A stretch of DNA of 40,985 nt. Source: a virus (taxonomy: Duplodnaviria; Heunggongvirae; Uroviricota; Caudoviricetes). A program made the translations under genes and the position numbers. The notes beneath the pieces are model-generated. The model searched no databases, was not told the origin of the DNA, and was given only the letters and a program-made list of their open reading frames with translations. Positions 6,292 through 35,960 of the stretch are shown piece by piece. The first letter of the stretch is position 1. Every line of letters begins with the position of its first letter. The stretch covers positions 1 through 40,985 of the IMG/VR virus record IMGVR_UViG_2563366942_000017. One strand, 5' to 3'.

Positions 6292-6306
6292 TTACCTTTC
6301 GGGTAA
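6292..6306. promoter_or_regulatory. Operator palindrome TTACC-N5-GGTAA (site A1)
   Basis: ATTACCtttcgGGTAAT, perfect 17-bp palindrome, member of recurring family. Confidence 0.6.
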
Positions 6307-6345
6307 TTTGCAAAACGTGCTGGATAGCAAACAAATTATTTGATA

Positions 6346-6361
6346 CTGTATATTTATACAG
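6346..6361. promoter_or_regulatory. LexA (SOS) box 2, CTGT-N8-ACAG
   Basis: aCTGTatatttatACAGtt, near-consensus SOS box about 20 nt upstream of the SD of gene 6383. Confidence 0.65.
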
Positions 6362-6382
6362 TTATTGCATGGAGAAGATAAG

Positions 6383-6640
6383 ATGCAGCAGTATCACTAT
6401 CCACTGGAAGACGGATTTACCGAAAGGATTCACACGCCGGGAGGCGTCAGGTCACTGGTGGAGGGATCGCACTTGATGAAATTACTCCGGGATCTCGATA
6501 AGGATGGATTTAATGTCGATGGCCCACTTGCCGAACTGACTGCACTGATTAACTACGTCACCAGCTCACAGATGTCTATGCAGGATCTGCAAACACATCT
6601 CGACTATTGTGCCGAACAATTACGAAAGCAAACCAGATAA
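6383..6640 (+). CDS. Small antirepressor-like protein (standalone homolog of the C-terminal module of the two Ant proteins)
   Basis: SD GGAGAAG before ATG 6383; 85 aa; aligns to the last ~75 aa of ORFs 6953..7639 and 8813..9751 (shared IHxPxGV, LM.LL, DG..V.G..AELT, QTH..Y); preceded by two LexA boxes. Confidence 0.5.
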   Translation: MQQYHYPLEDGFTERIHTPGGVRSLVEGSHLMKLLRDLDKDGFNVDGPLAELTALINYVTSSQMSMQDLQTHLDYCAEQLRKQTR

Positions 6641-6671
6641 GGTTTGCAATTACCAAGCGGAGTGCTTATAT

Positions 6672-6686
6672 TTACCTTTGCGGTAA
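6672..6686. promoter_or_regulatory. Operator palindrome TTACC-N5-GGTAA (site A2)
   Basis: TTTACCtttgcGGTAAA between gene 6383 and the Bro-N antirepressor gene. Confidence 0.55.
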
Positions 6687-6780
6687 ATTTACATCGCACT
6701 CCTCTTGTGCCATAGTAATCGGGTACTGGCAAAATCCAGTGCCGGGATTGGCGTCCCGAGTTACTACAGAGGCACATATG

Positions 6781-6800
6781 CCGCATAAGCGGTTTTTTTA
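6781..6800 (+). terminator. Rho-independent terminator
   Basis: CCGCataaGCGG hairpin followed by TTTTTTT. Confidence 0.5.
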
Positions 6801-6952
6801 TGTGTAAAGCGCACCTATTCTATGGTGGGCTGTGTGGGGGCACCGAAAGGTGCGCCGGGTCCTTTGTAGCCGGTTACGCCAACCCTGCACAGTTCACCAC
6901 CAACCGATTGGCGTCGGTAGTGGTGATTAACCTAACTACAAAGGTGATCACT

Positions 6953-7639
6953 ATGACTGCTAACGTAACCCCATCTGTTTTTCATTTTGAATCAGAAGCA
7001 ACCATTCGAGCCATTGTTATTGATGGAAATCCTTGGTTTGTTGCCAAAGACGTTATTAAAGCTCTTCAACTGACAAACCCCACTATGTCAATAAAATCTC
7101 TTGATGATGATGAAAGGGCTAAATTTAACTTAGGCCGTCAAGGTGAAACCAATATTATCAACGAGTCAGGCCTCTACACACTGATCCTCCGCTGCCGCGA
7201 CGCAGTGACACCAGGCACTATCCCCTACCGCTTTCGTAAATGGGTTACAGGTGAGGTTCTTCCTCAGATCCGCCGCACCGGAAGTTACATAAAAAACTCG
7301 CTCCCGCAAGAAGAACGCATAAAGATGGTTGCCGACCAGGTAGCCAACGCCACGGCGTCAGCAGTAATGCAGGCGATGAAGATAGAGAACAAAACCTACA
7401 GTGCCCCACTGAAGCCCGGCTACCGTAGCCTGATTCATTCTCCGTCTGGTGTTCTCGGCCTGACGGAAAACTCACTGCTGATGAATCTGCTGAACCAGTT
7501 ACAGGAAGACGGGCACGACGTATCGGGCGCGGCGGCGGAGCTGACCACCATGTTCTGCTACATCGTCGGTGTGAGCAAATGCCTGCGTGATATCCAGACC
7601 CACGCGGAGTACATCAACGACAAGGCAGGGTTCTTCTGA
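6953..7639 (+). CDS. Antirepressor with Bro-N-like N-terminal domain
   Basis: SD AAGGTGA before ATG 6953; N-terminal IDGNPWFVAKDV motif typical of Bro-N/Ant N-terminal domain; C-terminal 77 aa identical to that of ORF 8813..9751; upstream ORF extension is treated as 5' leader. Confidence 0.65.
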   Translation: MTANVTPSVFHFESEATIRAIVIDGNPWFVAKDVIKALQLTNPTMSIKSLDDDERAKFNLGRQGETNIINESGLYTLILRCRDAVTPGTIPYRFRKWVTGEVLPQIRRTGSYIKNSLPQEERIKMVADQVANATASAVMQAMKIENKTYSAPLKPGYRSLIHSPSGVLGLTENSLLMNLLNQLQEDGHDVSGAAAELTTMFCYIVGVSKCLRDIQTHAEYINDKAGFF

Positions 7640-7665
7640 CGGCGGCGGCACAGGGACGTGCCTTT
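7395..7665. repeat. Inverted repeat arm 1 (3' end of Bro-N antirepressor gene plus ~25 bp)
   Basis: Reverse-complement match to 8787..9057; encodes identical 77-aa C-terminus; DNA differs at several synonymous positions; boundaries approximate. Confidence 0.6.
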
Positions 7666-7682
7666 AAATAATTCTGTACAGA

Positions 7683-7711
7683 TTGCAGACTGTGGGTGAA
7701 TAGCGTACTAT
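7683..7711 (+). promoter_or_regulatory. Sigma70-like promoter TTGCAG-17-TACTAT
   Basis: -35 TTGCAG, 17-nt spacer, -10 TACTAT; operator B starts at the last T of the -10. Confidence 0.45.
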
Positions 7712-7725
7712 TACCTCAAGGGTAA
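7711..7725. promoter_or_regulatory. Operator palindrome TTACC-N5-GGTAA (site B)
   Basis: TTACCtcaagGGTAA overlapping the predicted transcription start of the 7786/7940 cassette. Confidence 0.6.
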
Positions 7726-7785
7726 ACGGATTGGTTTCATTTTTATTAATCCGTGTAATGAACTTATGAGATATGAGGTAATGTC

Positions 7786-7965
7786 ATGCGAAACGAAAAA
7801 TTGCAGATGCGTAGAGCGCAAGCTGCCGCAAGACGTTCTTTCAATGGAAGCGTAGAGTACGTAAAAGTTACTATGACAAAAGATCACGCAAGTCGCGTAT
7901 CCCGCGCTTTCTTTGATTCTCGTAACAATAAGGAAAATTATGAGTTCGTCTGCGTCGCAGAATGA
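7786..7965 (+). CDS. Small basic protein (59 aa), candidate antitoxin/regulator partner
   Basis: Not in ORF track (<60 aa); ATG 7786 with SD GAGGTAA 6 nt upstream; overlaps downstream gene start by 26 nt (translational coupling). Confidence 0.35.
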   Translation: MRNEKLQMRRAQAAARRSFNGSVEYVKVTMTKDHASRVSRAFFDSRNNKENYEFVCVAE

Positions 7966-8485
7966 TAAAAATCAAATTGTCAGATATAAGGGTCGAGTAT
8001 TGCATACGCAAAATTTCTCGGCCCTTTGTGCATCTGATCTTGAGCTGAAGAAAGTATCTGATGCCTTTACCCAGTATTGGAAAACGGGATACCATCCATC
8101 TCTTGGTAAAGATGCTGCATTTGCTCGTCCGACAGAAATGCTTAAACTAAATGTCAGGCATACTCATGTCGATAACCAAGACTATATTCCAGAAGATAGT
8201 GATAAAAAACACACTGGTAAAAAATCATCTTGGGATGCATGGAAAAATATAGCGTCTGTGCAAGTAAAATGCATACCAACAAGTGATTGCTTTTTAGTTT
8301 ATTCGGTAAATCACAATCGTGATGCGCTGGTTATGTTTTTTGTTGACGCAGATGCCCACAACATAACTGAGCAAGAAGAGTTTAAAGAGGCAGCAATCAC
8401 TATCAGTTATCAATTCTTTGAGAAAACAAAAACAGAACCAATGCCTTTAGAAGAAGATCTTTTTTCTGATAAATGGAAGGAATAA
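7940..8485 (+). CDS. YafO-family toxin-like protein (candidate toxin or abortive-infection effector)
   Basis: SD AAGGA before ATG 7940; segments DAFTQYWKTGYHPSLGKDA, VRHTHVDN and CFLVYSVNHNRDALVMFFVD resemble E. coli YafO motifs (recalled from memory, no search run); AT-rich codon usage; strong terminator follows. Confidence 0.45.
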   Translation: MSSSASQNDKNQIVRYKGRVLHTQNFSALCASDLELKKVSDAFTQYWKTGYHPSLGKDAAFARPTEMLKLNVRHTHVDNQDYIPEDSDKKHTGKKSSWDAWKNIASVQVKCIPTSDCFLVYSVNHNRDALVMFFVDADAHNITEQEEFKEAAITISYQFFEKTKTEPMPLEEDLFSDKWKE

Positions 8486-8506
8486 GCCCGCGCTGCGGGC
8501 TTTTTT
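8486..8506 (+). terminator. Rho-independent terminator
   Basis: GCCCGC-GCT-GCGGGC hairpin followed by TTTTTT. Confidence 0.7.
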
Positions 8507-8578
8507 GTGGACGAAACAAAAGTCAGTGCTACACTCATTGACGCCACATCGAGGTGGCTTATAGATGGAAATTTCACA

Positions 8579-8740
8579 ATGAAAAAAGCATTTGCTGCAC
8601 TGTTCGTTTTGTTGTCTCTGGTAGCTTCAACTCAGGCCTTTGCCGGTCGTTGTCAGCACGACAGCGATACTGCCGCTGACGGCTCCCGCTGCGGTGGGCG
8701 TTCTGCGGATTCCCGCCCGGGCGGCGGTGGCATTCGTTAA
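8579..8740 (+). CDS. Small secreted peptide candidate (signal peptide plus ~30 aa Gly/Arg/Cys-containing mature part)
   Basis: MKKAFAALFVLLSLVASTQAFA looks like a Sec signal peptide with AFA cleavage site; weak SD; GC-rich. Confidence 0.3.
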   Translation: MKKAFAALFVLLSLVASTQAFAGRCQHDSDTAADGSRCGGRSADSRPGGGGIR

Positions 8741-8744
8741 AACA

Positions 8745-8763
8745 AGGCCGCGAAAGCGGCCTG
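8745..8763 (-). terminator. Hairpin terminator downstream of antirepressor gene (minus strand)
   Basis: GGCCGC-gaaa-GCGGCC hairpin; T-rich tract follows on minus strand. Confidence 0.45.
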
Positions 8764-8786
8764 TGACATGTCACGCTAGTTTCGTT

Positions 8787-9057
8787 TTGCACGTCCCTGT
8801 GCCGCCGTTCTGTCAGAAGAACCCTGCTTTGTCGTTGATGTATTCCGCGTGCGTCTGGATATCACGCAGGCATTTGCTCACACCGACGATGTAGCAGAAC
8901 ATGGTGGTCAGCTCCGCCGCCGCGCCCGATACATCGTGCCCGTCTTCCTGTAACTGGTTCAGCAGATTCATCAGCAGTGAGTTCTCCGTCAGGCCGAGAA
9001 CACCCGACGGCGAATGAATCAGACTGCGGTAGCCTGGCTTCAATGGATAACCATAAC
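8787..9057. repeat. Inverted repeat arm 2 (3' end of second antirepressor gene plus ~25 bp)
   Basis: Reverse-complement match to 7395..7665; boundaries approximate. Confidence 0.6.
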
Positions 9058-9751
9058 ATTTTGTCTGTGTTTTAATTGCCTCACGAAGCGCATCTAACAT
9101 CTTGACTGCCACTTCATCATTCTCTGATGCAGATCCAGCAGGGAGATACTCCCCTTCAAGCGGAACCCGAGCAACAAGAGACAACGCTTCGGCAAATTGA
9201 TCTTCACCAATTTCTTTGTACGAACAGCCAAAATGAGATTTCAGTGACGACCACATGGTGATCATCGCCTTAGCCTGTTTTTCTTTTGGCAGAGACTGAC
9301 CGCGACTCATGACGAGTTGTTTAATGGCTTCCTGCTGTTCAGTTGTTATTTTACCCGGCAACGCCTTTTTAGCTTTGCGTGGGTTAACCACATGGCCTTT
9401 AGTCCAGTACTCGTAGAGCACATCGTCACACTCTTCCTGATACTGGATTACCTTGTCGCGGATTTCAGGGCGGACTTTGTTAGGGCTGATGCTGTTCAAC
9501 CAAGCTGCCAATTTTCGTAAAGCCATACAAATCATGGCTTGCACCCCACCGGCAGAAGGTATGGTGATTTCCACCATACCCTTCGAGAAGCGTTGAGAAA
9601 TCTTCTTATGTTGAGATTTCCAGTCTAGCCCCATTCCCTCAACGATAGGTTTCATTGGGGTATACGGTTCGCCGTTGTGATTGACAACATAAAGCTCTGC
9701 GCCGTGGAATGGCACGTTGATAGTAGATACTGCTGTTGCTATACTCGTCAT
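8813..9751 (-). CDS. Antirepressor (Ant-like), distinct N-terminal domain, shared C-terminal module
   Basis: N-terminal NVPFHGAELYVVNHNGEPYTPMKPIVEGMGLDW resembles antirepressor N-domains; C-terminal 77 aa identical to ORF 6953..7639; sits downstream of Arc-like gene as in P22 arc-ant. Confidence 0.65.
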   Translation of the reverse strand: MTSIATAVSTINVPFHGAELYVVNHNGEPYTPMKPIVEGMGLDWKSQHKKISQRFSKGMVEITIPSAGGVQAMICMALRKLAAWLNSISPNKVRPEIRDKVIQYQEECDDVLYEYWTKGHVVNPRKAKKALPGKITTEQQEAIKQLVMSRGQSLPKEKQAKAMITMWSSLKSHFGCSYKEIGEDQFAEALSLVARVPLEGEYLPAGSASENDEVAVKMLDALREAIKTQTKCYGYPLKPGYRSLIHSPSGVLGLTENSLLMNLLNQLQEDGHDVSGAAAELTTMFCYIVGVSKCLRDIQTHAEYINDKAGFF

Positions 9752-9823
9752 GTCGTTAATTCCTATACGTAGTTTTACGATACTGAAGCCCTGACGGTCT
9801 GGCCACCGTGGGGCTTCGCTGTT

Positions 9824-9991
9824 TTATGCCACGCTATTCTTCTCACCAGTGAGTCCATACACTTTCCTCAGCTGATAGATAATCTCTGTATTGAACTTTC
9901 GGCATTCTTTTTCGCCATTTCTTTCAATAGCTAACTTCACATCGTCCGGAAAACGAACTCGTCGTTGACACATCTCTTTTGCTTTTTGCAT
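9824..9991 (-). CDS. Arc-like ribbon-helix-helix repressor
   Basis: SD AGGAG before ATG 9989-9991; 55 aa; RVRFPDDVKLAIERNGEKECRKFNTEIIYQL fits Arc/Mnt RHH pattern (beta-strand then two helices). Confidence 0.55.
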   Translation of the reverse strand: MQKAKEMCQRRVRFPDDVKLAIERNGEKECRKFNTEIIYQLRKVYGLTGEKNSVA

Positions 9992-10006
9992 TTCATATCT
10001 CCTTAG

Positions 10007-10065
10007 CCCCACCGTGGGGCAAAATAATTGTCACACCGTGCGTCATTGATGTCAAGCACACGGTG
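10007..10065. promoter_or_regulatory. immI-like operator/promoter region with CACCGTG palindromes
   Basis: GCCCCAC-C-GTGGGGC palindrome at 10007-10020, CACCGTG at 10034-10040 and its inverse CACGGTG at 10059-10065; a related GGCCACCGTGGGGC lies at 9801-9814 between arc-like and ant. Confidence 0.45.
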
Positions 10066-10111
10066 AGGCATACTTCAATCATTGCAAGTAACTCAATATT
10101 TGGTGAAGAAC

Positions 10112-10543
10112 ATGAGCAGAGAAGATCCACAACTAAGGATCAGACTTCCCGTCGAAGTAAAAGAAAAAATAGAAATTTCTGCAAAAGCCAATAAGCGATC
10201 AATGAACGCTGAAATAGTACAACGTCTTGACACCAGCTTTCTGAAAGATATTCATGAAGATGACGTAATTTCTGCTTATGAAGCAAAAATCATTGCAAAC
10301 AATGCACGACATGAAATATCAAATATTATTTTCAAAAGAACCTTTAATGAAATTAATAAGAAAATAACACTTGGACATACAAGTTTTTATATAAACCTTA
10401 ATGACCTTGAACTGGAATCACTTGCAGATAATGATTACCAGATCATCTTTGAAAAAACATTTAATAAGCTCAATGAACTAGGTTACATCATCTGTGAAAA
10501 CTCATGGGATGCAGATGGTTTTGGAATTGAAATACCTGAATAG
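10112..10543 (+). CDS. Mnt-like RHH DNA-binding protein with ~95-aa C-terminal extension
   Basis: N-terminus RIRLPVEVKEKIEISAKANKRSMNAEIVQRL matches Mnt/Arc RHH motif; divergent from arc-like gene; ORF track start is TTG, internal ATG 10112 preferred. Confidence 0.55.
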   Translation: MSREDPQLRIRLPVEVKEKIEISAKANKRSMNAEIVQRLDTSFLKDIHEDDVISAYEAKIIANNARHEISNIIFKRTFNEINKKITLGHTSFYINLNDLELESLADNDYQIIFEKTFNKLNELGYIICENSWDADGFGIEIPE

Positions 10544-10606
10544 GAAGAACAAAAGGCGTGTACATATTACACGTCTTTAATACAATTGAAAAACGCCACA
10601 TTACTG

Positions 10607-11197
10607 ATGTATGTTACAACAAGGAGCGATATTTTGAAAACCATATCTATATTAAAGGTTGCATTAGGCGTCGCTATTATTTTGACTCTCTCAATATTGT
10701 TTTATTTTTACCACAAACAAACTGCTATTGCTCTTGATAGTCACGCGGCAAACTCATTTTTCTCAGAGTACATAGTGCCGCTATCAGGAAGCGGTATAAC
10801 AAATAAATATACTGACTATGACATCAAATATGGAATTGATGATGGGGAGACTATTGTATTACATGTAATCATTAAAAACCTAATGACAGTAAATAAAAAT
10901 ACAGACTTCAACGATAAAAATACAATACATCACAACAACAGCAAAACATTAATTTCTTATAGTAGCAACATCTATACGGATAAATGCCTAAAATACATAT
11001 CAGAAGATACAATAAAAGAAACCCGCGAAAAGTTAAAAAACATATATTGTGCATCCGGCAGTTTTCACAAATTATCGCCGCAAGAGCGTTTATTCTACGA
11101 AGCAAGAAAACAACGTAAGTCAATAATATTACATTATTATGCTGATTCAGGGGAGACACTCATATTTAATATTGGGGTTTCCCCTGAATCATGCTAA
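10607..11197 (+). CDS. AT-rich membrane-anchored protein of unknown function (superinfection-exclusion/defense candidate)
   Basis: N-terminal TM helix ILKVALGVAIILTLSILFYFY; very AT-rich compared with flanking structural genes; start ambiguous (ATG 10607 or TTG 10634 with AAGGAG SD). Confidence 0.45.
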   Translation: MYVTTRSDILKTISILKVALGVAIILTLSILFYFYHKQTAIALDSHAANSFFSEYIVPLSGSGITNKYTDYDIKYGIDDGETIVLHVIIKNLMTVNKNTDFNDKNTIHHNNSKTLISYSSNIYTDKCLKYISEDTIKETREKLKNIYCASGSFHKLSPQERLFYEARKQRKSIILHYYADSGETLIFNIGVSPESC

Positions 11198-11208
11198 AGG
11201 TGTTTAAC

Positions 11209-14200
11209 TCACCGCATCACCGGATCCACCTGGTTTATTAGTGGCGCAATCCAGAACAGGTTATTGCCGGGTATCAGGGTTCGGACATTATGCACAATAC
11301 GATCACCGGCATCACCATTCAACACTCCTGCGGTCACATCAATGATGCTATCCGCAAGACCAAATGACGGTCCGAATAGAGATCCTACGAATCCACGACT
11401 GGCATACCTAGACTGTGTGCCAGTGCCAAATAAAGCCCCCAGCCCAACAGCACCACCAGTAGCCTTTTCAGCCATATTGTTATATTCCATCAATGGCCCA
11501 AGAATACCGGATCTATCTATACCCTCAAGCACCAGCTTCTCTGGTGACCAGTCAACATTTTTCCCTTTCGATGCTTCTTTAAGCGCATAGACCAGTGAGC
11601 CAAGAGCAATCTGAAATGCAGTGCCATAATAAAATTGCGCAGTTCCTTCCTGTAACCCACCAAGTAGCGCACGGTTGTATGAAGCCGTTGTGAATGATTT
11701 AAACTGAAATATCGTTCGCCCCATTGGAGTACTCGCCCATAAAGGTGTGTCACCAATACCGGGGGTGATGATAGTGTTATTAACGTCTTTCAGAACCGCT
11801 GACTGGAATACTCCGGCAACGTACTGATCGTCCCATTTATCAAAGTTACCAATGTGCCATCCATCAATTACCTCACCATGTTTCTCGAACTCACTGCGAA
11901 TACGCGCAGCCATATTGTCGTTGATACCGAGTTTTGCCATGCGACGTGCAGAAAACGCACCAGACAAAATACCGTCTGACGTGAGCATTCCGTTCATGGA
12001 TTTGTTTATGTCATTAAATCGATCCATGAGTGTCAGCTTGCCGAAGGCATCAGTAATTCGCTCCATTCCTGCTTCGACTGCTGTTGTCCTGGAAGAACTG
12101 TCAACAAGATCACCAATTGCACGAGAACGTGAATGTAGTACAGTTTCCAATCCAATCCCCATCTTCAACATCTCTTCTTTGCTGGCCTTAAATGCCGGTG
12201 ATTGGGATATCTGAGAAGCATAGCCTTTCATGGAGTTACGGAAACCATTAACCATAACCCCTCTGGCCAGATCTGGAATAGCTGATACTGTCATTCCACC
12301 GAGTTTGGTCGTGAAGTTCACATCCCGCAGAAAAGCGCCAGCACGAACAAAAAACGAAGACGGGTCATCAGGCATACCATATGTACCAACAAGACGATCG
12401 CGTAATGCTGTTATGTCTCTGAGATCATTTGCTCTTGATTTTGAAAGTCTGGACTGTTCTTTCCGTAATTCCTTTTCGTACTTTCGCATTAATGAATCGA
12501 GTTTACCCTGAGGAACAACTTCACCATTGCTCTCATAACGTGCTTTCAGATTTGCCACACTTTCGTCATATTTCGCCTTTATTTTTTCAGGCACTTCCCG
12601 TAACAGACTGTCATATTCGTCCTCAATTAATTGCAGACGCTCTGTCATAGTTCGTTTGCCAAATGTTCTCGTCAACTCAATTTCTGCTGCCGCTTCACGG
12701 ATATGACGTTGTAGAACGTAATTCACATCACTTTCGAGATAATCCCTGATAAGACTATCAGGCACATTTAATGTTCTTTCTTTCGTACTACCTGCGGCTT
12801 TTACAGAAAATACGCTGACAAAATCCTGTGGAACCTTAGCACCAGTAATTTTATTAATTACGATATCCGCTGCAATTTCAGCATCCTCAGGATCCAGTGT
12901 TTTATTGCCTCTCGACCACCAGTCAACCAAAATACGTCGAAATTTATCGCGTTCACTGATTATTTTTCCAACTTTATATATACGTGGGAAATAGCTTGCC
13001 TGGCCTAATGCTTTCAGTTCTTCATCTGGCGGCAATAAACCAAGCTTTTGCATTTCAACCTTCACCCGATTTAATACAGTTCGCATCGCCTGCGCCGTTT
13101 CCTGAACAACAGGATTAGCATGCACATCACCGCTTCGCATAGCATTCCCAACCTGCTGACGAAATGAATCAAAACTCATGTCACCACCATCAGCTTTATA
13201 CTTTGCGTATGCCTGTTTATTTCCGACAACAACAGCAGCTTCTTCACGCTGCCATCCACGTGTACGGGTTTCTACAGCTACCGGTGTTTCAATCCCCCTT
13301 TCATTTCCTTTAAGGGTGAAATTATTTTCGGCTAACTCCAGCGTTGTTTTTCGCACTGTCTTGGACGGAGACTCCATTAACCTTGTCAAAGGAGTAAGAT
13401 AGCTCCCTGCTTTCCATGCAGCCTTTCCAACCACCCCACCGGAAACAGGGGTTAAATCATCCAGAGTCGCTGTATCAATTTTCATAGCACCAACACTACC
13501 ACCATCAGAAAGCGAAGCGGCAGCCCTGTCAGTCGCTGATGTAATGCTCATATTATCAAGAGCATCAGCAACCTCACGCGTGGCTGCAGCCCGGACGGAT
13601 GGCGAAAGCGCAACACCAGCACTGGCAAACACGCCGCTCATCATCGCACCCGCTGCAATGTGAGCGGCACTTTCACCCCATGAGCGTGTTATTTGCTGAT
13701 TATTCAGCACAACCTCGCTTAATGCTGTACCGGCTGCACCAATCGCAATCTGTGAGCCAATACGCGCCAGTGCCCCTCCTTGAGCACCGGGGATAAACAT
13801 TGACGCAACAGTAACCGGATCCATTCCCGCAGCAATACTGGCAAGGGTTCCAACTACGCCAGCATCAGACAATAAACGTCTGTCTTCATTTTCATCATCT
13901 ATCTGCTGCTTAATCCACGCCGTTTCCTCTGGCGATCGGGAATCTGCAAATTTCGCCCCCCAGTATTCATAACCGTGCAACTCATTTTTATCAGCATATG
14001 GGTTATAACCTTCGACCGGTTCAAACTGTCTGGCTGGTCGGAAAAAACCAGCCAGAATATTGTTCTGTCGCATTGCAGCCCCCCATACGGAAGGCTCCGG
14101 TGGCAATGGCTCAGGATTAGCCCCTTCCGGAAGGGCAACATCAAACCCAGTTTGTTCCGGCAAAACATTACCTGACGGGATCAGTCCGTTATTAAGATCT

Positions 14201-23966: not shown

Positions 23967-24259
23967 TCCTGTTCACTGGCCTCTTTGGCCATCTTCAAAT
24001 ACTGTTCAGGGCAATGCGCCATAACGCGCTGAAACAGTTCCAGCGCCAGATTGCGTTGCCCCTCATTAAATGCCATTGCCATAGCATCCATCGGAGAGAT
24101 AGCGGAAAACACACGGCCTTTCTCCAGCACCGACCAGACAACGCGACGCCCCTGTTCACTGCTCATGACAAAGCGAATGTCATCAATTTCACGCTGTGCC
24201 ATGTCACGTTGCTTACGGGCGTTTTCTTCTTTCAGTTGATCGTCTTCGTAATCTGTCAT
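23963..24259 (-). CDS. Hypothetical protein between portal and scaffold
   Basis: 98-aa ORF, start overlaps portal stop (ATGA). Confidence 0.4.
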   Translation of the reverse strand: MTDYEDDQLKEENARKQRDMAQREIDDIRFVMSSEQGRRVVWSVLEKGRVFSAISPMDAMAMAFNEGQRNLALELFQRVMAHCPEQYLKMAKEASEQE

Positions 24260-25949: not shown

Positions 25950-26156
25950 TTACTGACCAAGCAGCGTTTTACCGCTGGTATTAGCGGTTGATGTGTCGCC
26001 CTGAGAACCGGTAAGCAGCGTAGAACTACGACCAGCAGCAGCGCGACGGCGACGTGTTTCTTCGTCGCGGGCATCAACAACGGCGGCATCCTGCTCCTGT
26101 GGTGCTGCCTGAACTTCTGGTGTTGCAGGCACTGATGGTGAGCTACCCATGCACAT
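25950..26156 (-). CDS. Small hypothetical protein upstream of portal
   Basis: 68-aa ORF with GGAG SD; low complexity; weak. Confidence 0.25.
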   Translation of the reverse strand: MCMGSSPSVPATPEVQAAPQEQDAAVVDARDEETRRRRAAAGRSSTLLTGSQGDTSTANTSGKTLLGQ

Positions 26157-26245
26157 ATCAATGACTCCGTACGCAATTAAATTATTACCAATTTAACCAC
26201 ATATGATTTATTTATCGTAGATAGTTGACATTTAACGCACGAATT

Positions 26246-26260
26246 ATTACCTTTCAGGTA
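26246..26260. promoter_or_regulatory. Operator palindrome TTACC-N5-GGTAA (site C)
   Basis: ATTACCtttcaGGTAAG; a TTGACA hexamer lies 17 nt upstream on plus strand. Confidence 0.5.
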
Positions 26261-26582
26261 AGTAAAGGGTTCATTCCGGTTACTAACCTGACTGGCTTGT
26301 CGTTAAATTGAACAGGTGGAGTGAGCTTTTATTTTGAGCAGTACGGCGTATGGCACATGCGCCGATAGCGGTCTGGATACGTTTAAGGGGCACCCTCCCT
26401 TGCTCGGGCAAACGAACCAGGTAGCCGGAATGTGCAAGTCGAGCGGTTTTATTCCGCGCACGGGGATTCACCATCCCGGCGATTCGGTGTGACGCCTCGG
26501 AAGAGACGAGGGTACAACGATGAGAGCATTTATGGAGCCGCGACAAAGTGTGGCGCCTTAACAGGCTAAGTGCTCTCAGCGT

Positions 26583-26659
26583 TGTGGCATTAGCTCAGTT
26601 GGACAGAGCAACCGCCTTCTAAGCGGTTGGTCGCAGGTTCGAATCCTGCATGCCACGCC
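26583..26659 (+). tRNA. tRNA-Arg (anticodon UCU), phage-encoded
   Basis: 77 nt; acceptor stem GTGGCAT/ATGCCAC, D-arm AGCTCAGTTGGACAGAGC, anticodon loop CTTCTAA (UCU), T-arm GCAGGTTCGAATCCTGC, discriminator G, encoded CCA. Confidence 0.85.
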
Positions 26660-26858
26660 AGAATCACGCCTAAGGACCGTGATGCCAGAAGTTCCAGGGG
26701 CTTGGCGGTGATGGTTTCCCTTGAAGGGCTATCACCGCCCTTTTTACAGCAGGACGCCATTGCGATGACTTCATGCTGTAAACCAGTACAGCCACGGAAG
26801 GCATAACTCATTGCTTCCAGTTCGACCGGTTCGCCGGGCATTTTTTTAAGGTGAGATC

Positions 26859-27233: not shown

Positions 27234-27252
27234 CACCGTGACATGTCACAAA

Positions 27253-28799: not shown

Positions 28800-29392
28800 T
28801 GATTGCCATCCTGACGTTCTTTCAGTCTCTTCCTGGCTGCCGCTATGCGATCAGCAATTGTCACATTCACATTAACATCCAGGCGTTCTTTGAACGCGTT
28901 GACATCAACATGCTTACCAATCAGCTCAAGGTTCTTCACCTTGTCAGGCCATTTAATTTTTTTGAGGATTGTCTCTATTGAATCCTCGTTCATGTTCATG
29001 ATGGTCGATGACAGATCAAAGCCACTAAGCGTAGTGCGCCAGATTTTCGGCCACTCACGGATTGGTTTAAGGCTCCCATCGTCGTTGAGGATGTCGATCA
29101 CGTCCATCTGGTCGATCTCCACCAGGCGCATGAGAACGTAATCAGCACTGACACGCATTCGTTTGTTGCGCTCCTCCATCAACTCGGCAATCCGTTTTTG
29201 AATGCGTTCATCGCGCATCATGACACTGGCTTTAACTGCCGCTGTATTTGGGGAGAATCCTGCGTTAATCGCTGCCTGAGTCTGGTTTTCAGGCGTTTTG
29301 ATGTATGACTGGCAATAAGCCTCCTGCATTGCTGTTAGTGGCTTAAATTGCGTTGATTTGCGTTTATAGGTTTTAGGTTCAGCAGGCATCAT
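28796..29392 (-). CDS. Terminase small subunit
   Basis: About 199 aa from internal ATG 29392 (ORF-track N-terminal extension is Thr-rich and spans operator repeats); basic helical protein upstream of large subunit. Confidence 0.6.
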   Translation of the reverse strand: MMPAEPKTYKRKSTQFKPLTAMQEAYCQSYIKTPENQTQAAINAGFSPNTAAVKASVMMRDERIQKRIAELMEERNKRMRVSADYVLMRLVEIDQMDVIDILNDDGSLKPIREWPKIWRTTLSGFDLSSTIMNMNEDSIETILKKIKWPDKVKNLELIGKHVDVNAFKERLDVNVNVTIADRIAAARKRLKERQDGNQ

Positions 29393-29409
29393 AACCACCG
29401 TGGTAATAG

Positions 29410-29424
29410 TTACCGTTGTGGTAA
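29410..29424. promoter_or_regulatory. Operator palindrome TTACC-N5-GGTAA (site H) at terS start
   Basis: TTACCgttgtGGTAA; flanked by imperfect copies TAACCaccgtGGTAA (29392-29406) and GGTAATAGTACC. Confidence 0.55.
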
Positions 29425-29435
29425 TAGTACCATGC

Positions 29436-29461: not shown

Positions 29462-29510
29462 AGTATTCAAAACCCGTCAAATTCATCATGCATAATCTAC
29501 TCGTGACATG

Positions 29511-29852
29511 TCACACTATTAATTTCGTTTCATGCCAGCCTTTAGTCACCCAGCATTGTGAGTCACCATTACACGGACATGAATTAACTGGAACTCTCTC
29601 GCCGCACTTACCGCAACGTGTTCTGCTGATCGATTTTATACGCCCGTGCACGCGTGCATCATCCTGGCGGATCAGTAACGCTATATACTCACCAAATTCG
29701 TAAGGCGCACGCCCGGGGCGACGCGTGGCACAGTTACGCTCCAGAATTTCAATTTCCTGAGCATCAAGCACAATCTCCAGCTTACGCACACCAGATGCAG
29801 CTTGTCTGGCTCTCTGAGCGGCTTTGCGCTCTGCTGCTGATTTAGCCATCAA
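29511..29852 (-). CDS. Hypothetical protein with C-terminal Cys-rich zinc-ribbon-like motif
   Basis: 113 aa; CGKCG...CPC motif; last gene before terminator and terminase block; possible late regulator (speculative). Confidence 0.4.
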   Translation of the reverse strand: MMAKSAAERKAAQRARQAASGVRKLEIVLDAQEIEILERNCATRRPGRAPYEFGEYIALLIRQDDARVHGRIKSISRTRCGKCGERVPVNSCPCNGDSQCWVTKGWHETKLIV

Positions 29853-30144: not shown

Positions 30145-30383
30145 ACCGCCTGACCAATCCGGCTGGCATGGGTATCTTTGGATACTGTTCCGTCTTTAGC
30201 CAGCTCCATAAGAATTTTGCGCAAATCTGCCGAACGCCATTCTTCATCAGGAAATTCCTTCTCCATTGCCAACCGCAGATTCCAGGTTGCCATCCTGAAT
30301 GGATATTCCCCGCCGAGAGCTTTATCTTGCAGGGCAGCCCGGGAACGCATCACCTGCAAAACCTTCTCTTTTACATCCATCAT
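30123..30383 (-). CDS. Hypothetical protein
   Basis: 86-aa ORF coupled to neighbours in nin-like region. Confidence 0.4.
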   Translation of the reverse strand: MMDVKEKVLQVMRSRAALQDKALGGEYPFRMATWNLRLAMEKEFPDEEWRSADLRKILMELAKDGTVSKDTHASRIGQAVWRLEVR

Positions 30384-30997: not shown

Positions 30998-30998
30998 A

Positions 30999-31607
30999 TC
31001 ACTCTCCTTTGATGCGAATGCCAGTAGCGCGGATTGCAGCGATGACCTCAGAAACTTTGTATGCCATTACCGTTTGGTAATCCTCGTGAAAATCTGTTCG
31101 ATGAAGCATGCTGCTACGTTCTGGGAGCAGTATTTCCCGATCCTCCAGTTCTGCAATGCGCTTCTCTGCGGCTTCCAGCTTCTCGCGCATATCGTCAACG
31201 TACTCGACCAGAGAACCGCCAGCAGGAATTTCGCACTCCTCGACCAGTTGGAAGTAGATATCAGCTGCGGCCCGTGTGTTGCTATGCCTAGCGTCGCCCA
31301 TCTCACCTTCACGAAGAGCATCGCGTTCGGCGGTAAGATTGGCTATTTTGCTGTCTTTGCCTTCCAGCTCAACGCGCAGCCTCCCTACCGTTAGCGCAAT
31401 TTCCTCGTTCTCCTGGTCGCGGCGTTTGATGTATTGCTGGTTTCTTTCCAGTTCATCCAGCAGTGCCAGCGCGATATCTGGCGAAAAGTGCTTCATAAAA
31501 TCGTTAAGCGCATTAATTCGCTGATCGAAGGGCATTACAGGTGCTTCACCAGCAATTTTTGTTTTTTCAGCGATTTCACGAAGCTTTTGATAATCAATCT
31601 TGCTCAC
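30999..31607 (-). CDS. Coiled-coil hypothetical protein (Ead/Ea22-like?)
   Basis: 202 aa, Glu/Arg/Leu-rich helical repeats. Confidence 0.4.
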   Translation of the reverse strand: MSKIDYQKLREIAEKTKIAGEAPVMPFDQRINALNDFMKHFSPDIALALLDELERNQQYIKRRDQENEEIALTVGRLRVELEGKDSKIANLTAERDALREGEMGDARHSNTRAAADIYFQLVEECEIPAGGSLVEYVDDMREKLEAAEKRIAELEDREILLPERSSMLHRTDFHEDYQTVMAYKVSEVIAAIRATGIRIKGE

Positions 31608-31911
31608 TGGTTGCCTCCTTTGCTGGGCTTTCTAACTTCTGAGTGGTTGTATCAAACTCAAACAACTTAACCACGTCATCAAACAGGACATAATCGCCAT
31701 CAGAATCTTCAGTCATGTCAGCGCCACAATCCTGACCGCACGAGTCACAACCATCCATATCAAGCTCGTATCGCTTCAGGTTTGCGATATTTGATAAATT
31801 CAGCGCCAGTACAGCTAGGTCATAAACCTCGTCAGCGGTATATCCTGCACCATGTCCATACATTTCAATGCGGGATATGATTTCTTCTACCCGTTGTTTT
31901 GTGATTGTCAT
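31594..31911 (-). CDS. Hypothetical acidic protein
   Basis: 105-aa ORF, overlaps neighbours by a few codons. Confidence 0.4.
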   Translation of the reverse strand: MTITKQRVEEIISRIEMYGHGAGYTADEVYDLAVLALNLSNIANLKRYELDMDGCDSCGQDCGADMTEDSDGDYVLFDDVVKLFEFDTTTQKLESPAKEATSEQD

Positions 31912-32369
31912 TTTTGCTCACCACTCTGTTCTTCCAGAAAAATACGCATAGCCTCAAGCATCTCTTCGGTGTCATACGGAGACAGCTTGTCACGCAGGAT
32001 GTGTTCAATGCTGTTAATGAACTTGCGGATTGCTTTGCGTTCAATTTCAGCCAGGAAAGCATCGGTGGCTGGCATATTTCCTGTTGCCTTCATGGCCTCC
32101 AAAATAACCAGAACGCCATCTCGCCCAACCACCTCAGCGATAACCTCAGTGTTGTCGCCAACAACATCGCAGAATGCCTGAACTGCCTTACGAGCCAGCT
32201 CATTCTCCACTGCCAGCGCATTAGCACGCACCAGTTGCACTTCCAGTTGCGTTGCCAAATCGCTGATCAGCTTTGCCACACTGCGCATATCAACGGCACC
32301 ACATTCTGCTTTCAGTTCCGAAGCCATCTCATGCCCGGCGGAAACTAACCCTTTGATATTACTTTCCAT
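31908..32369 (-). CDS. Hypothetical protein
   Basis: 153-aa ORF in nin-like block. Confidence 0.4.
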   Translation of the reverse strand: MESNIKGLVSAGHEMASELKAECGAVDMRSVAKLISDLATQLEVQLVRANALAVENELARKAVQAFCDVVGDNTEVIAEVVGRDGVLVILEAMKATGNMPATDAFLAEIERKAIRKFINSIEHILRDKLSPYDTEEMLEAMRIFLEEQSGEQK

Positions 32370-32430
32370 CTTTACCTTCGCTTATCCACATAACTTATTG
32401 ATTACATTGATAACTAAAAAGATCGTCGAT

Positions 32431-32775
32431 TCAGAACTCTTCGATGTTCCAGCCACCACCTGCTTTCTTTGGCTTAACCGTTACCCCGATGATTCGGAAC
32501 GGATACTGATCTGCGGCGACTTTGGTTTTCACCCTGGCGTCGTCGGTCCAGAAACCTTTCACTTCGTGCAGTTCCATCTCGCCGGTGGCGAGCATCACAG
32601 CGAAATCTGGCGTATAGAACGTGTTGTCAGCTAACCGCAGCTTGATACCCTCGAATCGATACCAGACGATTTCTCCTGCACGTTTACGCATCTCAAGGTG
32701 CTGACAATACGCAGATTCTGTTTTGTTCATCTGGCCTGTTTTGAGTCGACCAAGAGCCTGTATCTGTTTTCTCAT
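32431..32775 (-). CDS. DUF1064-like phage protein
   Basis: 114 aa; pattern recalled from lambdoid nin-region proteins; operator D1 overlaps its SD. Confidence 0.45.
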   Translation of the reverse strand: MRKQIQALGRLKTGQMNKTESAYCQHLEMRKRAGEIVWYRFEGIKLRLADNTFYTPDFAVMLATGEMELHEVKGFWTDDARVKTKVAADQYPFRIIGVTVKPKKAGGGWNIEEF

Positions 32776-32778
32776 GAT

Positions 32779-32793
32779 TTACCCCTGAGGTAA
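32779..32793. promoter_or_regulatory. Operator palindrome TTACC-N5-GGTAA (site D1)
   Basis: TTTACCcctgaGGTAAT 4 nt upstream of the start codon of gene 32431..32775. Confidence 0.55.
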
Positions 32794-32840
32794 TTAAAAA
32801 CCACATAAGACACGAAATCAATAGATTTTAGAATATTTTA

Positions 32841-32855
32841 TTACCTCATAGGTAA
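32841..32855. promoter_or_regulatory. Operator palindrome TTACC-N5-GGTAA (site D2)
   Basis: ATTACCtcataGGTAAT; TTGATT-17-TTTAAT promoter-like hexamers lie between D2 and D1 on minus strand. Confidence 0.55.
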
Positions 32856-32892
32856 TTATTGAGACGTAAAAAAATGCGCTATCGCGCTGGTA

Positions 32893-33693
32893 TTACTTGA
32901 TAAATCCTGCCGCCTTTCCCCGCCTGTATTCCTCCATCAGCCACTGCGCCGGTGTTATTCCCCCCAGGGTAGCGGCGTTAGGCATACACCCGAAACTTCG
33001 CCCTGGTGGATGGTAAACGTCTCTCCCTGTGTCCGGAGGCGTACTCATGGGTTCTGACTTTGCCTGTATGCTGATCACCGGATCGGGTATCTGCTGTCCG
33101 GAAGCCACCTTTTTCGCCCAATCATCAAGCAGCCTGCGCGCGTGTTTCTCAACCTCAATCTCGCTAAGCTGGCGCTGATACATTGCACGGCGGGTATCAC
33201 ATACGACCCAGTACATAACCGGATGCCGCCACGGGAATCTTTCGGGACCACCAGGATATAAACTTTTTTCCTTGCTGTACCGGTGAAACTCCGCCATCAC
33301 ATCGTCAATGGTGACGCCAAGAACCATCTTGCTGTCTTTACACCACTTGATAAATTTCCCTGGCGACGGCCAGAACGGAGATTCACTGGCGCGGGCGTGG
33401 CGCATACCAGCAGAAACCTGTTCACGGGTTCGGATCCCCCCTTCGGCAAACGCAGCAATCCACTGCTGTTTTGCAGCAACTTCCTGCTCTGGCGTCTTCA
33501 GGTTGGTTACCACTGCCGCCGGAAACAGTTGTTTCAGCTGTTTGAAAAGGGCATCAACAAGCCTCTCTGCTGACATGTTCACTACGTTGTCATTGTTGGT
33601 GTACTGATGCTCATAACCTGACATGCGAGAAAGGGCTTCTCCGTCACGGTTTTGTATTGCGGTAAAAACGTTGTTCACAAGAAATCCTCCCAC
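32893..33693 (-). CDS. Replication protein P-like (helicase loader)
   Basis: Similarity recalled to lambda P (WxAAF.E.GI.T.EQV.AGMR.AR....F.PSPG.F..WC); start uncertain (in-frame ATGs also at 33624 and 33576). Confidence 0.6.
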   Translation of the reverse strand: MGGFLVNNVFTAIQNRDGEALSRMSGYEHQYTNNDNVVNMSAERLVDALFKQLKQLFPAAVVTNLKTPEQEVAAKQQWIAAFAEGGIRTREQVSAGMRHARASESPFWPSPGKFIKWCKDSKMVLGVTIDDVMAEFHRYSKEKSLYPGGPERFPWRHPVMYWVVCDTRRAMYQRQLSEIEVEKHARRLLDDWAKKVASGQQIPDPVISIQAKSEPMSTPPDTGRDVYHPPGRSFGCMPNAATLGGITPAQWLMEEYRRGKAAGFIK

Positions 33694-34490
33694 GCTTCAG
33701 GGCTGTTCCAGTGCGGAACGTTGTTATCAGGTAATGTTGATTGCTTCTGTCTGCTAATCTGCAGCCGCCTTGCCAGCTTCTGCTCCCACTGTGCCTGATG
33801 GTATGCCTTACCCTCAGCCATCCAGTAAATTCTGAACTCTGCAAGTTCCTGTGCCGTTGGCAGACTGTCCAGGTAGATTCCCTGCAATGAGCTTTTCCGA
33901 AGAAAGTCATCTGATGGCTGCCATTGTTCATGCATGACAAATTTGCCTAATTGCCCTGGCCCACCAGGAGGAACAAAGTTATTCATCACGGCGTTGTTTG
34001 CACCGGGGTCATGAGGCACAGAATCCCCGCTTTTTGTCCTGCTCTCCCTCTCTTGGTTAAATGACTGGTTATATGACTGGTTCTGGATCCCGTTTTTGGG
34101 ATCATTCAACATCCCGTTTTTGGGATCATTCAACATCCCGTTTTTGGGTATATTCCCGTTTTCGGTAACATTACCGTTTTCGGGTTCATTACCCCCTTCC
34201 CGGTTGCCTTTAATGTTCCCGTTTTTGGTTATATTAAGAGAGAAAACCCGCACTCTTTTCGTCGCTCCCTTTCTCTCTCCGGTATCTGAAATAAGCCCCA
34301 TTTTCATGAGCGATATAAGCCCGGCCTGCACGGTTTTTTTGTTCAGGCAAGTGTCTTTAACGAGGCGTTCTATGCTGGGGTAGCAGAGGTTATATTCATC
34401 GGCTCTGTCAGCCATCGAGAGCAGTATGAGCTTTAATGACGAGCTACCTGGATCTGTCTCCCAGGCCCAATCTGTTGCATGTCTGCTCAT
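33675..34490 (-). CDS. Replication initiator O-like protein (contains origin iterons)
   Basis: N-terminal winged-helix-like region; central residues NGNI/PKNGMLND repeats are translations of DNA iterons; immediately upstream of P-like gene. Confidence 0.6.
   Translation of the reverse strand: MSRHATDWAWETDPGSSSLKLILLSMADRADEYNLCYPSIERLVKDTCLNKKTVQAGLISLMKMGLISDTGERKGATKRVRVFSLNITKNGNIKGNREGGNEPENGNVTENGNIPKNGMLNDPKNGMLNDPKNGIQNQSYNQSFNQERESRTKSGDSVPHDPGANNAVMNNFVPPGGPGQLGKFVMHEQWQPSDDFLRKSSLQGIYLDSLPTAQELAEFRIYWMAEGKAYHQAQWEQKLARRLQISRQKQSTLPDNNVPHWNSPEAWEDFL
34087..34235. repeat. Iteron array (putative replication origin) inside O-like gene
   Basis: Six direct repeats of consensus (A/C)CCGTTTT(T/C)GG: two 24-bp units ATCCCGTTTTTGGGATCATTCAAC, then four shorter units. 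Confidence 0.65.
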
Positions 34491-34505
34491 GATTAATCTC
34501 CGCTA

Positions 34506-34706
34506 TCAGCTTGAATGTTGTGGGGAGGAATTAATCATGATCTGCTTAATCTCTGCCCTGATACGACGGTTTGATTCCATGGTGCACTCAACACAGTGTC
34601 CGTTGTAAACCCAGCGTTCACTGTCATGTCCGTGCTTACATGTTTTTCCGGTGTAGTAGCGTTTAAGTCCGCGCTTTGCGGCATCAATACGTGTAATGAT
34701 TTCCAT
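34506..34706 (-). CDS. Small Cys-rich (zinc-finger-like) protein
   Basis: Internal ATG 34706 with AGGG SD; motif CKHGHDSERWVYNGHCVEC. Confidence 0.35.
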   Translation of the reverse strand: MEIITRIDAAKRGLKRYYTGKTCKHGHDSERWVYNGHCVECTMESNRRIRAEIKQIMINSSPQHSS

Positions 34707-34786
34707 GGTAAGCCCTGTTATTAGTATTGGGATTACGGTTATTTTGTGCTGACACAAAAAAAAGATCAACCATATTTGGTTTTTTA

Positions 34787-34801
34787 TTACCTTTGAGGTA
34801 C
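34787..34801. promoter_or_regulatory. Operator-like palindrome (site E, imperfect)
   Basis: ATTACCtttgaGGTACG, one mismatch in right half. Confidence 0.4.
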
Positions 34802-34810
34802 GAATAGATA

Positions 34811-34834
34811 TGAAAAGACCGCCGGATGGCGGTC
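34811..34834 (-). terminator. Rho-independent terminator after cro-like gene
   Basis: GACCGCC-atcc-GGCGGTC hairpin with TTTTCA on minus strand. Confidence 0.5.
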
Positions 34835-34856
34835 TACAGAGGGTTGTGGCTGGATA

Positions 34857-35087
34857 TCATGAGTAGAAGAAGTATGCCAGTTCTGCTTTTGAGCGCAGCC
34901 ATTGTCTTGATTTACAGGCTTTAAAAAGCCCATCCATCAATACCTTACCTGGCATTTTGCGCTTACCTGTTAAGTGAGTCTGGATATAGTGACTCGTCGT
35001 TCCGGCTTCCTGTGCGAAGGCTTCACGCTCATCCGGAGTAAGTGCAAGCCAGTGCTTTTTGAAATCGAAATGTCCGTTATCGCTCAT
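34857..35087 (-). CDS. Cro-like HTH regulator
   Basis: 76 aa, first gene of rightward-equivalent early operon, divergent from repressor; HTH-like segment TSHYIQTHLTGKRKMPGKVL. Confidence 0.5.
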   Translation of the reverse strand: MSDNGHFDFKKHWLALTPDEREAFAQEAGTTSHYIQTHLTGKRKMPGKVLMDGLFKACKSRQWLRSKAELAYFFYS

Positions 35088-35123
35088 AGCTATTGCCTGA
35101 TATTTATTTCAGATAATAAATAT

Positions 35124-35186
35124 TCACCCATAAGGTAACAAAAATCAAGGATAGTTACCTATGGGGTGCATTTACCTGTTGGGTAA
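35124..35186. promoter_or_regulatory. OR-like switch region with three operator sites
   Basis: TCACCcataaGGTAA (35124-35138), TTACCtatggGGTGC (35155-35169), TTACCtgttgGGTAA (35172-35186) between divergent cro-like and repressor genes. Confidence 0.6.
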
Positions 35187-35241
35187 TATTGCTTTAAATT
35201 GAATCATCTACTGATTCATATATGAGGCGATTTTCCAGAAA

Positions 35242-35826
35242 ATGAAAAGTATCCAGGACGTCCGCAGGCAAAATCTCAACGACTTGATCGACCGTGAATT
35301 CAATGGTGTTCAGACGCGGATGGCTGAAAAACTTGGAACTCAGGCAAATCTGGTAAACCGCTGGGCTCTTGGCAAGAAGGTTATCGGCGACCAGGTTGCG
35401 CGAAAAATTGAAGCTGCCGCCAATAAACCCCGTAACTGGCTTGATATCGATCGCTCGCTTTCTCAGGAAGGTTTTCAGCCTGTCGGACCAAGCGACATTG
35501 GTCAACTGGCGGCTCACAACCTGGAACGCTGGATGAGCGAAAGCCGCGACCTTTCAACGCAGGGAAAACTTCACCGCGCATCCGGCGTCGCCCAGGTAAC
35601 AATCAGCCGCCTGTTAAACAATGAGGTCAGCGTTTCCATTTCCACCCTGGAGAATGTTGCATCCGCATTTGGGCGTCACGGATATGAATTACTGATTCAC
35701 CCGCACGACCCCGCGACTATCAACTATGACCGCTCGCGCTACGCATTGTTACCTGAAACAGAGAAGGCAAAGATCGAAAGTTACATTGAATTTGTCATCA
35801 ACCAGAACGAAAAAAACAAACAATAA
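35242..35826 (+). CDS. Prophage repressor candidate (two HTH regions, no peptidase S24 domain)
   Basis: N-terminal CI-type HTH (QTRMAEKLGTQANLVNRWALGKK) and a second XRE-like HTH (LHRASGVAQVTISRLLNNE); divergent from cro-like; flanked by operator clusters; no Ser-Lys autocleavage motif. Confidence 0.55.
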   Translation: MKSIQDVRRQNLNDLIDREFNGVQTRMAEKLGTQANLVNRWALGKKVIGDQVARKIEAAANKPRNWLDIDRSLSQEGFQPVGPSDIGQLAAHNLERWMSESRDLSTQGKLHRASGVAQVTISRLLNNEVSVSISTLENVASAFGRHGYELLIHPHDPATINYDRSRYALLPETEKAKIESYIEFVINQNEKNKQ

Positions 35827-35847
35827 AACCATATTTTTCAGTAAGTA

Positions 35848-35872
35848 AGCCGCCTTATGGCGGCTTTTTTAT
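35848..35872 (+). terminator. Rho-independent terminator after repressor gene
   Basis: AGCCGCC-ttat-GGCGGCT followed by TTTTTT. Confidence 0.65.
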
Positions 35873-35883
35873 TGCCTATTCGA

Positions 35884-35960
35884 TTACCTAACGGGTAATT
35901 TTTTTAACTCATATCTATTGACATCAAACCAGATACGCATAATTATTACCTCAACGGTAA
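35884..35960. promoter_or_regulatory. OL-like promoter/operator region (sites G1, G2)
   Basis: ATTACCtaacgGGTAAT (35884-35898); TTGACA at 35918-35923; ATTACCtcaacGGTAAC (35946-35960) overlapping -10/+1. Confidence 0.6.

Follow-up and report, generated by a model that had tools for sequence, protein, structure and literature searches.

A stretch of viral DNA of 40,985 nucleotides (IMG/VR record IMGVR_UViG_2563366942_000017; hereafter the window) was found to carry a recurrent palindrome with the 15-bp core TTACC-N5-GGTAA, located on both sides of the gene for the prophage repressor Rep and in front of accessory and late genes. These palindromes are very probably the operators of Rep, a repressor of the antirepressor-controlled type represented by phages epsilon15 and SPC32H. 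The window was grouped by megablast with phages phiV10, TL-2011b, PAS61, phiv142-3 and ZX5, and it is an epsilon15-like podophage prophage of the phiV10/TL-2011b type, genus Uetakevirus. The original prediction, made from the window alone, had held that one protein, most simply the prophage repressor, silences accessory cassettes as well as lytic promoters; at the sequence level such control is supported by the homology of Rep, by orthologous sites in related phages, by the annotation of epsilon15 and by the positions of the sites.

When every palindrome with 5-mer half-sites and spacers of 0-12 was enumerated across the window, TTACC-N5-GGTAA ranked first with 10 copies while the runner-up had 3, and in 300 order-1 Markov resamples no palindrome of any kind exceeded 4 copies. 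The perfect cores begin at 6292, 6672, 7711, 26247, 29410, 32779, 32841, 35172, 35884 and 35946. It had been predicted that ten perfect copies of a 17-bp palindrome, ATTACC-N5-GGTAAT, were present; this holds for the 15-bp core (10/10) and not for the 17-mer, which is perfect at 6291, 32840 and 35883 only, the remaining seven sites being perfect in the core alone. The coordinate 26246 given at that time is the first base of the 17-mer, the core of which begins at 26247. The imperfect sites that had been listed were confirmed as real, with one mismatch at 29392, 34787 and 35124 and two at 35155, and the chance expectation of about 0.04 is arithmetically correct (40985 x 4^-10). None of 100 dinucleotide-preserving shuffles contained a match. 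Moreover, nine of the ten sites are intergenic (binomial P ~2e-9, given that open reading frames (ORFs) cover 91.6% of the window), and the tenth falls within a doubtful 60-aa antisense ORF, making the intergenic count at least 9/10.

Equal abundance of the motif in unrelated host sequence had been named as an observation that would overturn the proposal. There were no sites in 150 kb of Escherichia coli K-12 and none in 18 kb of Klebsiella chromosome, the latter being the host flank beside a related prophage, phi13.3, whose own 8 perfect sites all lie within the prophage. Together with the shuffled sequences, these counts effectively refute the notion that the motif is a host-factor binding site or a compositional artefact of enterobacterial DNA, to which we assign a vanishingly small probability. 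A full-text literature search for the motif returned nothing relevant.

The rep gene (35242..35826, plus strand) encodes a 194-aa protein with a helix-turn-helix (HTH) DNA-binding domain at its N terminus, followed by an HTH_3-like domain in the middle and a tail at the C terminus. Rep is 100% identical to phiV10 gp40 and to the ZX5 repressor and 42% identical to epsilon15 gp38, and it matches the structure of SPC32H Rep (PDB 5D50_A; 5D50/5D4Z) with E=4e-42. The only domains identified by Pfam were HTH_3 and a YdaS-like HTH, with no S24 peptidase domain among them. Because the motif NLVNRW, within the predicted recognition helix of the N-terminal HTH, is invariant in aligned Reps that are 43-78% identical to that of the window, a single operator sequence is expected to be common to these proteins. 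Relatives of Rep are encoded in at least 299 IMG/VR stretches. A search of IMG/VR for covariation between helix and operator returned only Reps that were 100% identical. The most distant Rep match in the phage collection, PseuP_224, differs in its helix and carries an S24 domain; this Pseudomonas phage locus contains zero TTACC sites, an absence that serves as a weak negative control and not as an instance of covariation.

The partner of Rep was also identified. The ant gene (6383..6640, plus strand) encodes an 85-aa antirepressor of the SPC32H type that matches PDB 5D50_E with E=5e-47, 72 of 83 aligned residues being identical. A near-consensus LexA box (TACTGTATATTTATACAGTT, 6344..6363) lies just upstream of the ant Shine-Dalgarno sequence and is conserved in phiV10, Tyrion and epsilon15. 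The presence of a Rep homolog, an Ant homolog and a LexA box indicates that the window carries the published Rep/Ant/LexA switch. A 104-aa gene after the leftward early promoter (36120-36434) was also considered as the antirepressor, and was set aside in favour of 6383-6640 as it had no PDB match. At the ant locus itself, two LexA-type boxes of the form CTGT-N8-ACAG (6273-6288 and 6344-6363) flank the Rep operator upstream of the gene; the upstream box is not conserved in phiV10.

In SPC32H, Rep has been described as a tetramer bound to palindromic sites, which an Ant tetramer splits into dimers (PMC9638917). The domains of Rep are arranged in the order DNA binding (N-terminal), dimerisation (middle) and tetramerisation (C-terminal), with two pairs of middle dimerisation domains ~100 Å apart, and the structural mechanism of repression "has not been extensively characterized" (PMC9986798). 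Overexpression in ZX5 of the repressor that is identical to Rep of the window abolished free phage and lowered holin and endolysin transcripts by >99.9% (PMC9782041).

The core motif was found at orthologous positions in seven relatives, with perfect sites numbering 8 in phiV10, 10 in TL-2011b, 9 in Tyrion, 11 in epsilon15 (10 of them with listed positions), 8 in Klebsiella prophage phi13.3, 10 in SPC32H and 3 in the 5-kb stretch of phiv142-3 that was examined. In the six other than phiv142-3, a common layout is seen: rep and the cro-like gene are separated by two or three sites, another two or three follow rep at the leftward early promoter, the replication genes are followed by a pair spaced exactly 62 bp, terS is preceded by one or two sites, and single sites are located upstream of the gp3-like gene and in the ant/tailspike region. 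Spacings of 62 bp, 31 bp and 17-18 bp are conserved among these phages. Alignment of six orthologous regions gave a pattern resembling a phylogenetic footprint, the half-sites being invariant, the central five bases variable and the flanks divergent. Critically, the RefSeq record of epsilon15 annotates seven of these sites, the sequences of which were checked, as protein_bind features for "repressor" in lysogeny; their orthologs in the window include the sites at terS, gp3, ant/tailspike, the leftward early promoter and after the replication genes. Further evidence came from 80 IMG/VR loci encoding exactly this Rep: the site closest to rep, described below as OR3-like, is at a constant offset in 80/80, and the 62-bp pair after the replication genes is retained in nearly all, its distance to rep varying with the replication module.

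Additional one-mismatch operators were observed in relatives ~57 bp upstream of int, for which a counterpart would lie past the end of the window, and in phiV10 and SPC32H upstream of the lysis cassette (int and lysis-cassette sites: L003, 26870 and 24692; L091, 26960 and 24782; L006, 18147). The lysis-cassette region of the window contains just a two-mismatch match (3257-3271).

The densest clusters of sites flank rep. Between rep and the divergent cro-like gene, an OR1-like operator (35123..35139, one mismatch) lies in the spacer of a predicted leftward PR-like promoter (TTGTTA-17-TATTAT, 35141 to 35113), an OR2-like operator (35154..35170, two mismatches) follows 31 bp away, and the abutting OR3-like operator (35171..35187, perfect core) is located ~55 bp upstream of the rep start codon. 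All three were conserved in an alignment of six phages. On the other side of rep, a distal operator (35883..35899, a perfect 17-mer) is positioned just past the rep terminator and just upstream of the -35 element of a predicted PL-like promoter (TTGACA-17-AATTAT, 35918-35946), and a proximal operator 62 bp away (35945..35961) covers the last two bases of the -10 element and +1. An imperfect operator (34786..34802, one mismatch) directly follows the terminator of the cro-like gene and is restricted to the phiV10 lineage.

The original prediction had also placed sites in front of several accessory and late operons, often over the -10/+1 region or the Shine-Dalgarno sequence. Their positions were confirmed for the small Ant, Bro-N, YafO-like, tRNA-Arg, nin-like and terS units. 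A distal nin-like operator (32840..32856, a perfect 17-mer) follows the replication-gene terminator, and 62 bp from it a proximal operator (32778..32794) overlaps the -10/+1 region of a predicted minus-strand promoter (TTGATT-17-TTTAAT, 32821 to 32793) and ends three bases before the ATG of a DUF1064 gene. Thus both the PL-like and the nin-like promoters have a second operator 62 bp upstream, just past a terminator. At terS, the distal operator (29409..29425) follows a terminator (29461-29444) and overlaps a conserved extended -10 element (TGGTACTAT, minus strand, 29432 to 29424) that is kept in epsilon15 as TGnTACTAT. The proximal operator (29391..29407, one mismatch) lies directly against the terS start codon and spans the Shine-Dalgarno sequence of that gene. 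The two terS operators abut each other, as do OR2 and OR3.

A regulator of the gp49/gp55 family (29511-29849) is encoded directly upstream of the terS operators and matches phrog_536, "transcriptional regulator". These two observations raise the idea that the palindromes are activator sites through which this regulator turns on the late and accessory operons. Such an activator would be hard to reconcile with the densest clusters flanking rep in a classic OR/OL layout, and with five sites on the -10/+1 region, a repressing and not an activating position. Annotation and literature likewise indicate Rep, and we consider the activator role very improbable.

The remaining sites accompany the ant region, accessory cassettes and the tRNA. 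An operator at 6291..6307 (a perfect 17-mer) is located between ant and the divergently oriented tailspike gene (3338-6187, minus strand), clear of both predicted core promoters. The operator at 6671..6687 overlaps the -10/+1 region of the predicted promoter (TTGCAA-17-TATATT, 6644-6672) of the Bro-N gene (6800-7639). That at 7710..7726 overlaps the same region of a predicted promoter (TTGCAG-17-TACTAT, 7683-7711) for a 59-aa gene and YafO-like toxin cassette (7786-8485). Between the gp3-like late gene (25950-26156, minus strand) and tRNA-Arg(UCU) (26584-26660, plus strand, antisense to the late genes), one half-site of the operator at 26246..26262 constitutes the -10 element (TACCTT) of a conserved predicted promoter with a TTGACA-17 arrangement aimed at the tRNA. 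As tRNA-Arg occupies an identical position in SPC32H and the Klebsiella prophage, it is a stable feature of the family rather than a recent insertion.

A shared register emerged from these assignments. Five operators (PL-like, nin-like, Bro-N, cargo/YafO-like and terS) start two bases inside a -10-like hexamer, such that the outer AT of the 17-mer (TT at Bro-N) forms the end of the -10 element. With five operators overlapping -10-like hexamers and the terS-proximal site over a Shine-Dalgarno sequence, the expected placement of the sites was borne out, and an extension of predicted Rep control to the Bro-N and YafO-like cassettes is supported.

At the YafO-like cassette, comparison with phiv142-3 located a mosaic junction (7726/7727) where the operator ends on its 3′ side. 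Up to that point the two phages share identical promoter and operator sequences, and beyond it the YafO-like cassette of the window is replaced in phiv142-3 by an unrelated 55-aa ORF. Because homology breaks immediately past the operator, the YafO-like cassette sits behind a resident promoter that is predicted to be controlled by Rep. The same junction could be taken to mean that the palindromes serve mainly as recombination or mosaic-junction sequences for module exchange, the dispersed copies being non-regulatory: homology between the window and phiv142-3 spans the promoter and operator and ends right past 7726, and the sites are located at module boundaries. We give this explanation very little weight, since homologous exchange would be poorly served by a 17-bp site in which the five central bases are free, conservation limited to the half-sites is the pattern left by protein contacts, and the fixed -10 register and fixed 62-bp pairing indicate a transcriptional function. 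Furthermore, a junction at a promoter is expected anyway when cargo is swapped behind a resident promoter.

A more serious competitor is the product of the cro-like gene (34857..35087, minus strand), a 76-aa protein divergent from rep that matches phrog_35, "transcriptional repressor". This Cro-like protein may bind the dispersed sites, either replacing Rep or sharing them as lambda Cro and CI do, and may dampen early and accessory promoters during lytic growth. It was found in every motif-bearing genome and is more conserved than Rep (59-84% identity across the family), with an invariant HTH-like segment, AGTTSHYIQ-HLT. On the other hand, the epsilon15 annotation credits the sites to the repressor and not to the Cro-like protein, and it is Rep of SPC32H that has been reported on palindromic sites (PMC9638917). 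The HTH assignment was moreover made without a family or structure match, as neither the Cro-like protein nor the gp55-like regulator had a match in PDB, NCBIfam or Pfam. On balance we hold this alternative to be unlikely; within it, site sharing by the Cro-like protein and Rep is plausible, and exclusive use of the sites by the Cro-like protein is unlikely.

Several considerations weigh against the assignment of the sites to Rep. Because the Cro-like protein always co-occurs with the motif and its HTH-like segment is invariant, comparison among phages cannot separate it from Rep. The promoters are consensus predictions only, some of them weak (7-8/12 matches), and the sites at 6291, 34786, 35883 and 32840 overlap no recognisable core promoter; a role for these four as looping partners, roadblocks or auxiliary sites is a guess. 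Finally, that Rep binds the sites, where the promoters lie, whether paired sites loop and in what order the events unfold are all inferred from sequence, and for binding this likewise weighs against the assignment.

With these points considered, operators of Rep remain the strongly favoured explanation, and the following sequence of events may be envisaged. The N-terminal HTH domains of Rep would read the TTACC half-sites, and the acting form would be a tetramer that bears two DNA-binding heads. In the lysogen, the repressor would sit on every operator-bearing transcription unit: it would hold PR through three operators and the late/terS promoter through two abutting operators, the PL and nin-like promoters would each be flanked by two operators 62 bp apart, and single operators would cover the -10/+1 regions of the Bro-N, exchangeable-cargo (YafO-like) and tRNA-Arg promoters. 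Following DNA damage, cleavage of LexA would release the small Ant (6383-6640), which would dismantle the Rep tetramer and free all of the operators together.

A bolder version of this model, possible although we doubt it, makes Rep the sole switch for the whole phage, acting on sigma-70-type promoters in one register with no dedicated late activator. Every unit, including the late operon, would then start at a promoter whose -10 element ends two bases inside an operator, and the late operon promoter would be the conserved extended -10 element (TGnTACTAT) that immediately follows a terminator. The 31- or 62-bp distance between paired sites would suit the two heads of a single Rep tetramer, the whole genome would be derepressed at once when Ant removed Rep, and some promoter-operator units would act as fixed expression slots behind which unrelated cargo is exchanged.

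Other features of the prophage were also recorded. It encodes three antirepressor-type genes: the SPC32H-type Ant (6383-6640), the Bro-N protein (6800-7639) and a P22 Ant-like protein (8813-9751, minus strand). The last is preceded by an Arc-like repressor gene (9824-9991, minus strand), and this P22-type Ant/Arc-like module has no Rep operator. Within the replication-initiator gene (33675-34490), iteron-like tandem repeats at 34054-34193 consist of a 24-bp unit x2.6 (100% identity), an 18-bp unit x3.1 and a 12-bp unit x2.4. By analogy with the lambda ori within gene O, they are probably the phage origin.

A second recurrent element, the perfect 12-bp palindrome GTGACATGTCAC, occurs three times (8763-8774, 27238-27249 and 29503-29514; ~0.005 expected), with a fourth copy bearing one mismatch at 24196-24207. 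Its conservation extends to TL-2011b, phiV10, epsilon15, Tyrion and the Klebsiella prophage. The element invariably adjoins a terminator at the 3′ end of a transcription unit, sometimes including the TGA stop codon (as for the gp55-like regulator, 29511). Between the gp3-like gene and its operator, a block of ~60 bp (26157-26215, containing CATATGTGGTTAAATTGGTAATAATTTAATTGCGTACGGAG) is nearly invariant in six phages, including epsilon15 and the Klebsiella prophage, while the sequence to either side diverges; a late promoter and an RNA element are possible identities for this block.

None of the motif, its assignment to the repressor or its scatter over the genome is new, all three being present in the public annotation of epsilon15, and structures of the repressor family have been solved. 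The present result extends that annotation and opens no new question. What may be undescribed is the fixed register of promoter and operator, the conserved 31- and 62-bp spacings and the slot for exchangeable cargo. The analysis accounts for the silencing of a very common E. coli prophage type, and shows that expression of the Bro-N, YafO-like and tRNA cassettes probably takes place upon induction or infection and not in the lysogen, which bears on whether they should be regarded as lysogenic-conversion genes. The motif is also useful in practice as a marker when promoters and immunity type are annotated in Uetakevirus prophages.

Dispersed repressor sites are known from other temperate phages. 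Many separate operons of P1 are silenced by its C1 repressor via 17-bp sites scattered over the genome, and induction is aided by an antirepressor; the operator of P1 is asymmetric, and the sequence of C1 is unrelated to that of Rep. The resemblance is functional only, as the sites of the window are palindromic and Rep falls in the XRE/HTH_3 class, outside the C1 type. In mycobacteriophage L5, gp71 acts on ~30 stoperators per genome, which are asymmetric 13-bp sites working in one orientation. The window is alike in having many intergenic repressor sites, some of them after promoters or terminators where elongation might be blocked, and differs in that its sites are palindromic and most lie on the -10/+1 region.

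Closer parallels exist with lambda CI/Cro, where the operators are likewise 17-bp sites of two-fold symmetry with an odd central spacer, three of which lie between the divergent repressor and cro genes (35123-35187 in the window, with a cro-like gene) and others beyond the repressor gene at the leftward early promoter. However, lambda operators are confined to OR and OL, whereas those of the window occupy at least eight intergenic regions. Moreover, the S24 (LexA-like) autocleavage domain of the lambda CI type is not present in Rep, whose homolog is instead inactivated by Ant, and the geometry of the Rep tetramer differs from that of CI.

The closest match is the Rep/Ant/LexA switch of the Salmonella phages epsilon15, SPC32H and SPN1S, which shares with the window a homologous Rep of the same three-part layout and NLVNRW motif. 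Also in common are an Ant, close to that of SPC32H, whose gene follows a LexA box, an identical 15-bp operator core, and operators at orthologous positions at PR (three sites), PL, the 62-bp pair, terS, gp3 and ant/tailspike. Against this, the window Rep is just 42-43% identical to its counterparts overall and ~40% in its C-terminal part, and PL has two operators in the window versus three in epsilon15, SPC32H and the Klebsiella phage. The window also adds operators before lineage-specific cargo (Bro-N and YafO-like) and after the cro terminator. Taken together, the sequence-level features that characterise Uetakevirus Rep operators are present in the window: a LexA-controlled Ant in place of repressor self-cleavage, the core motif, a Rep gene between the PR and PL clusters, and sites at orthologous positions.

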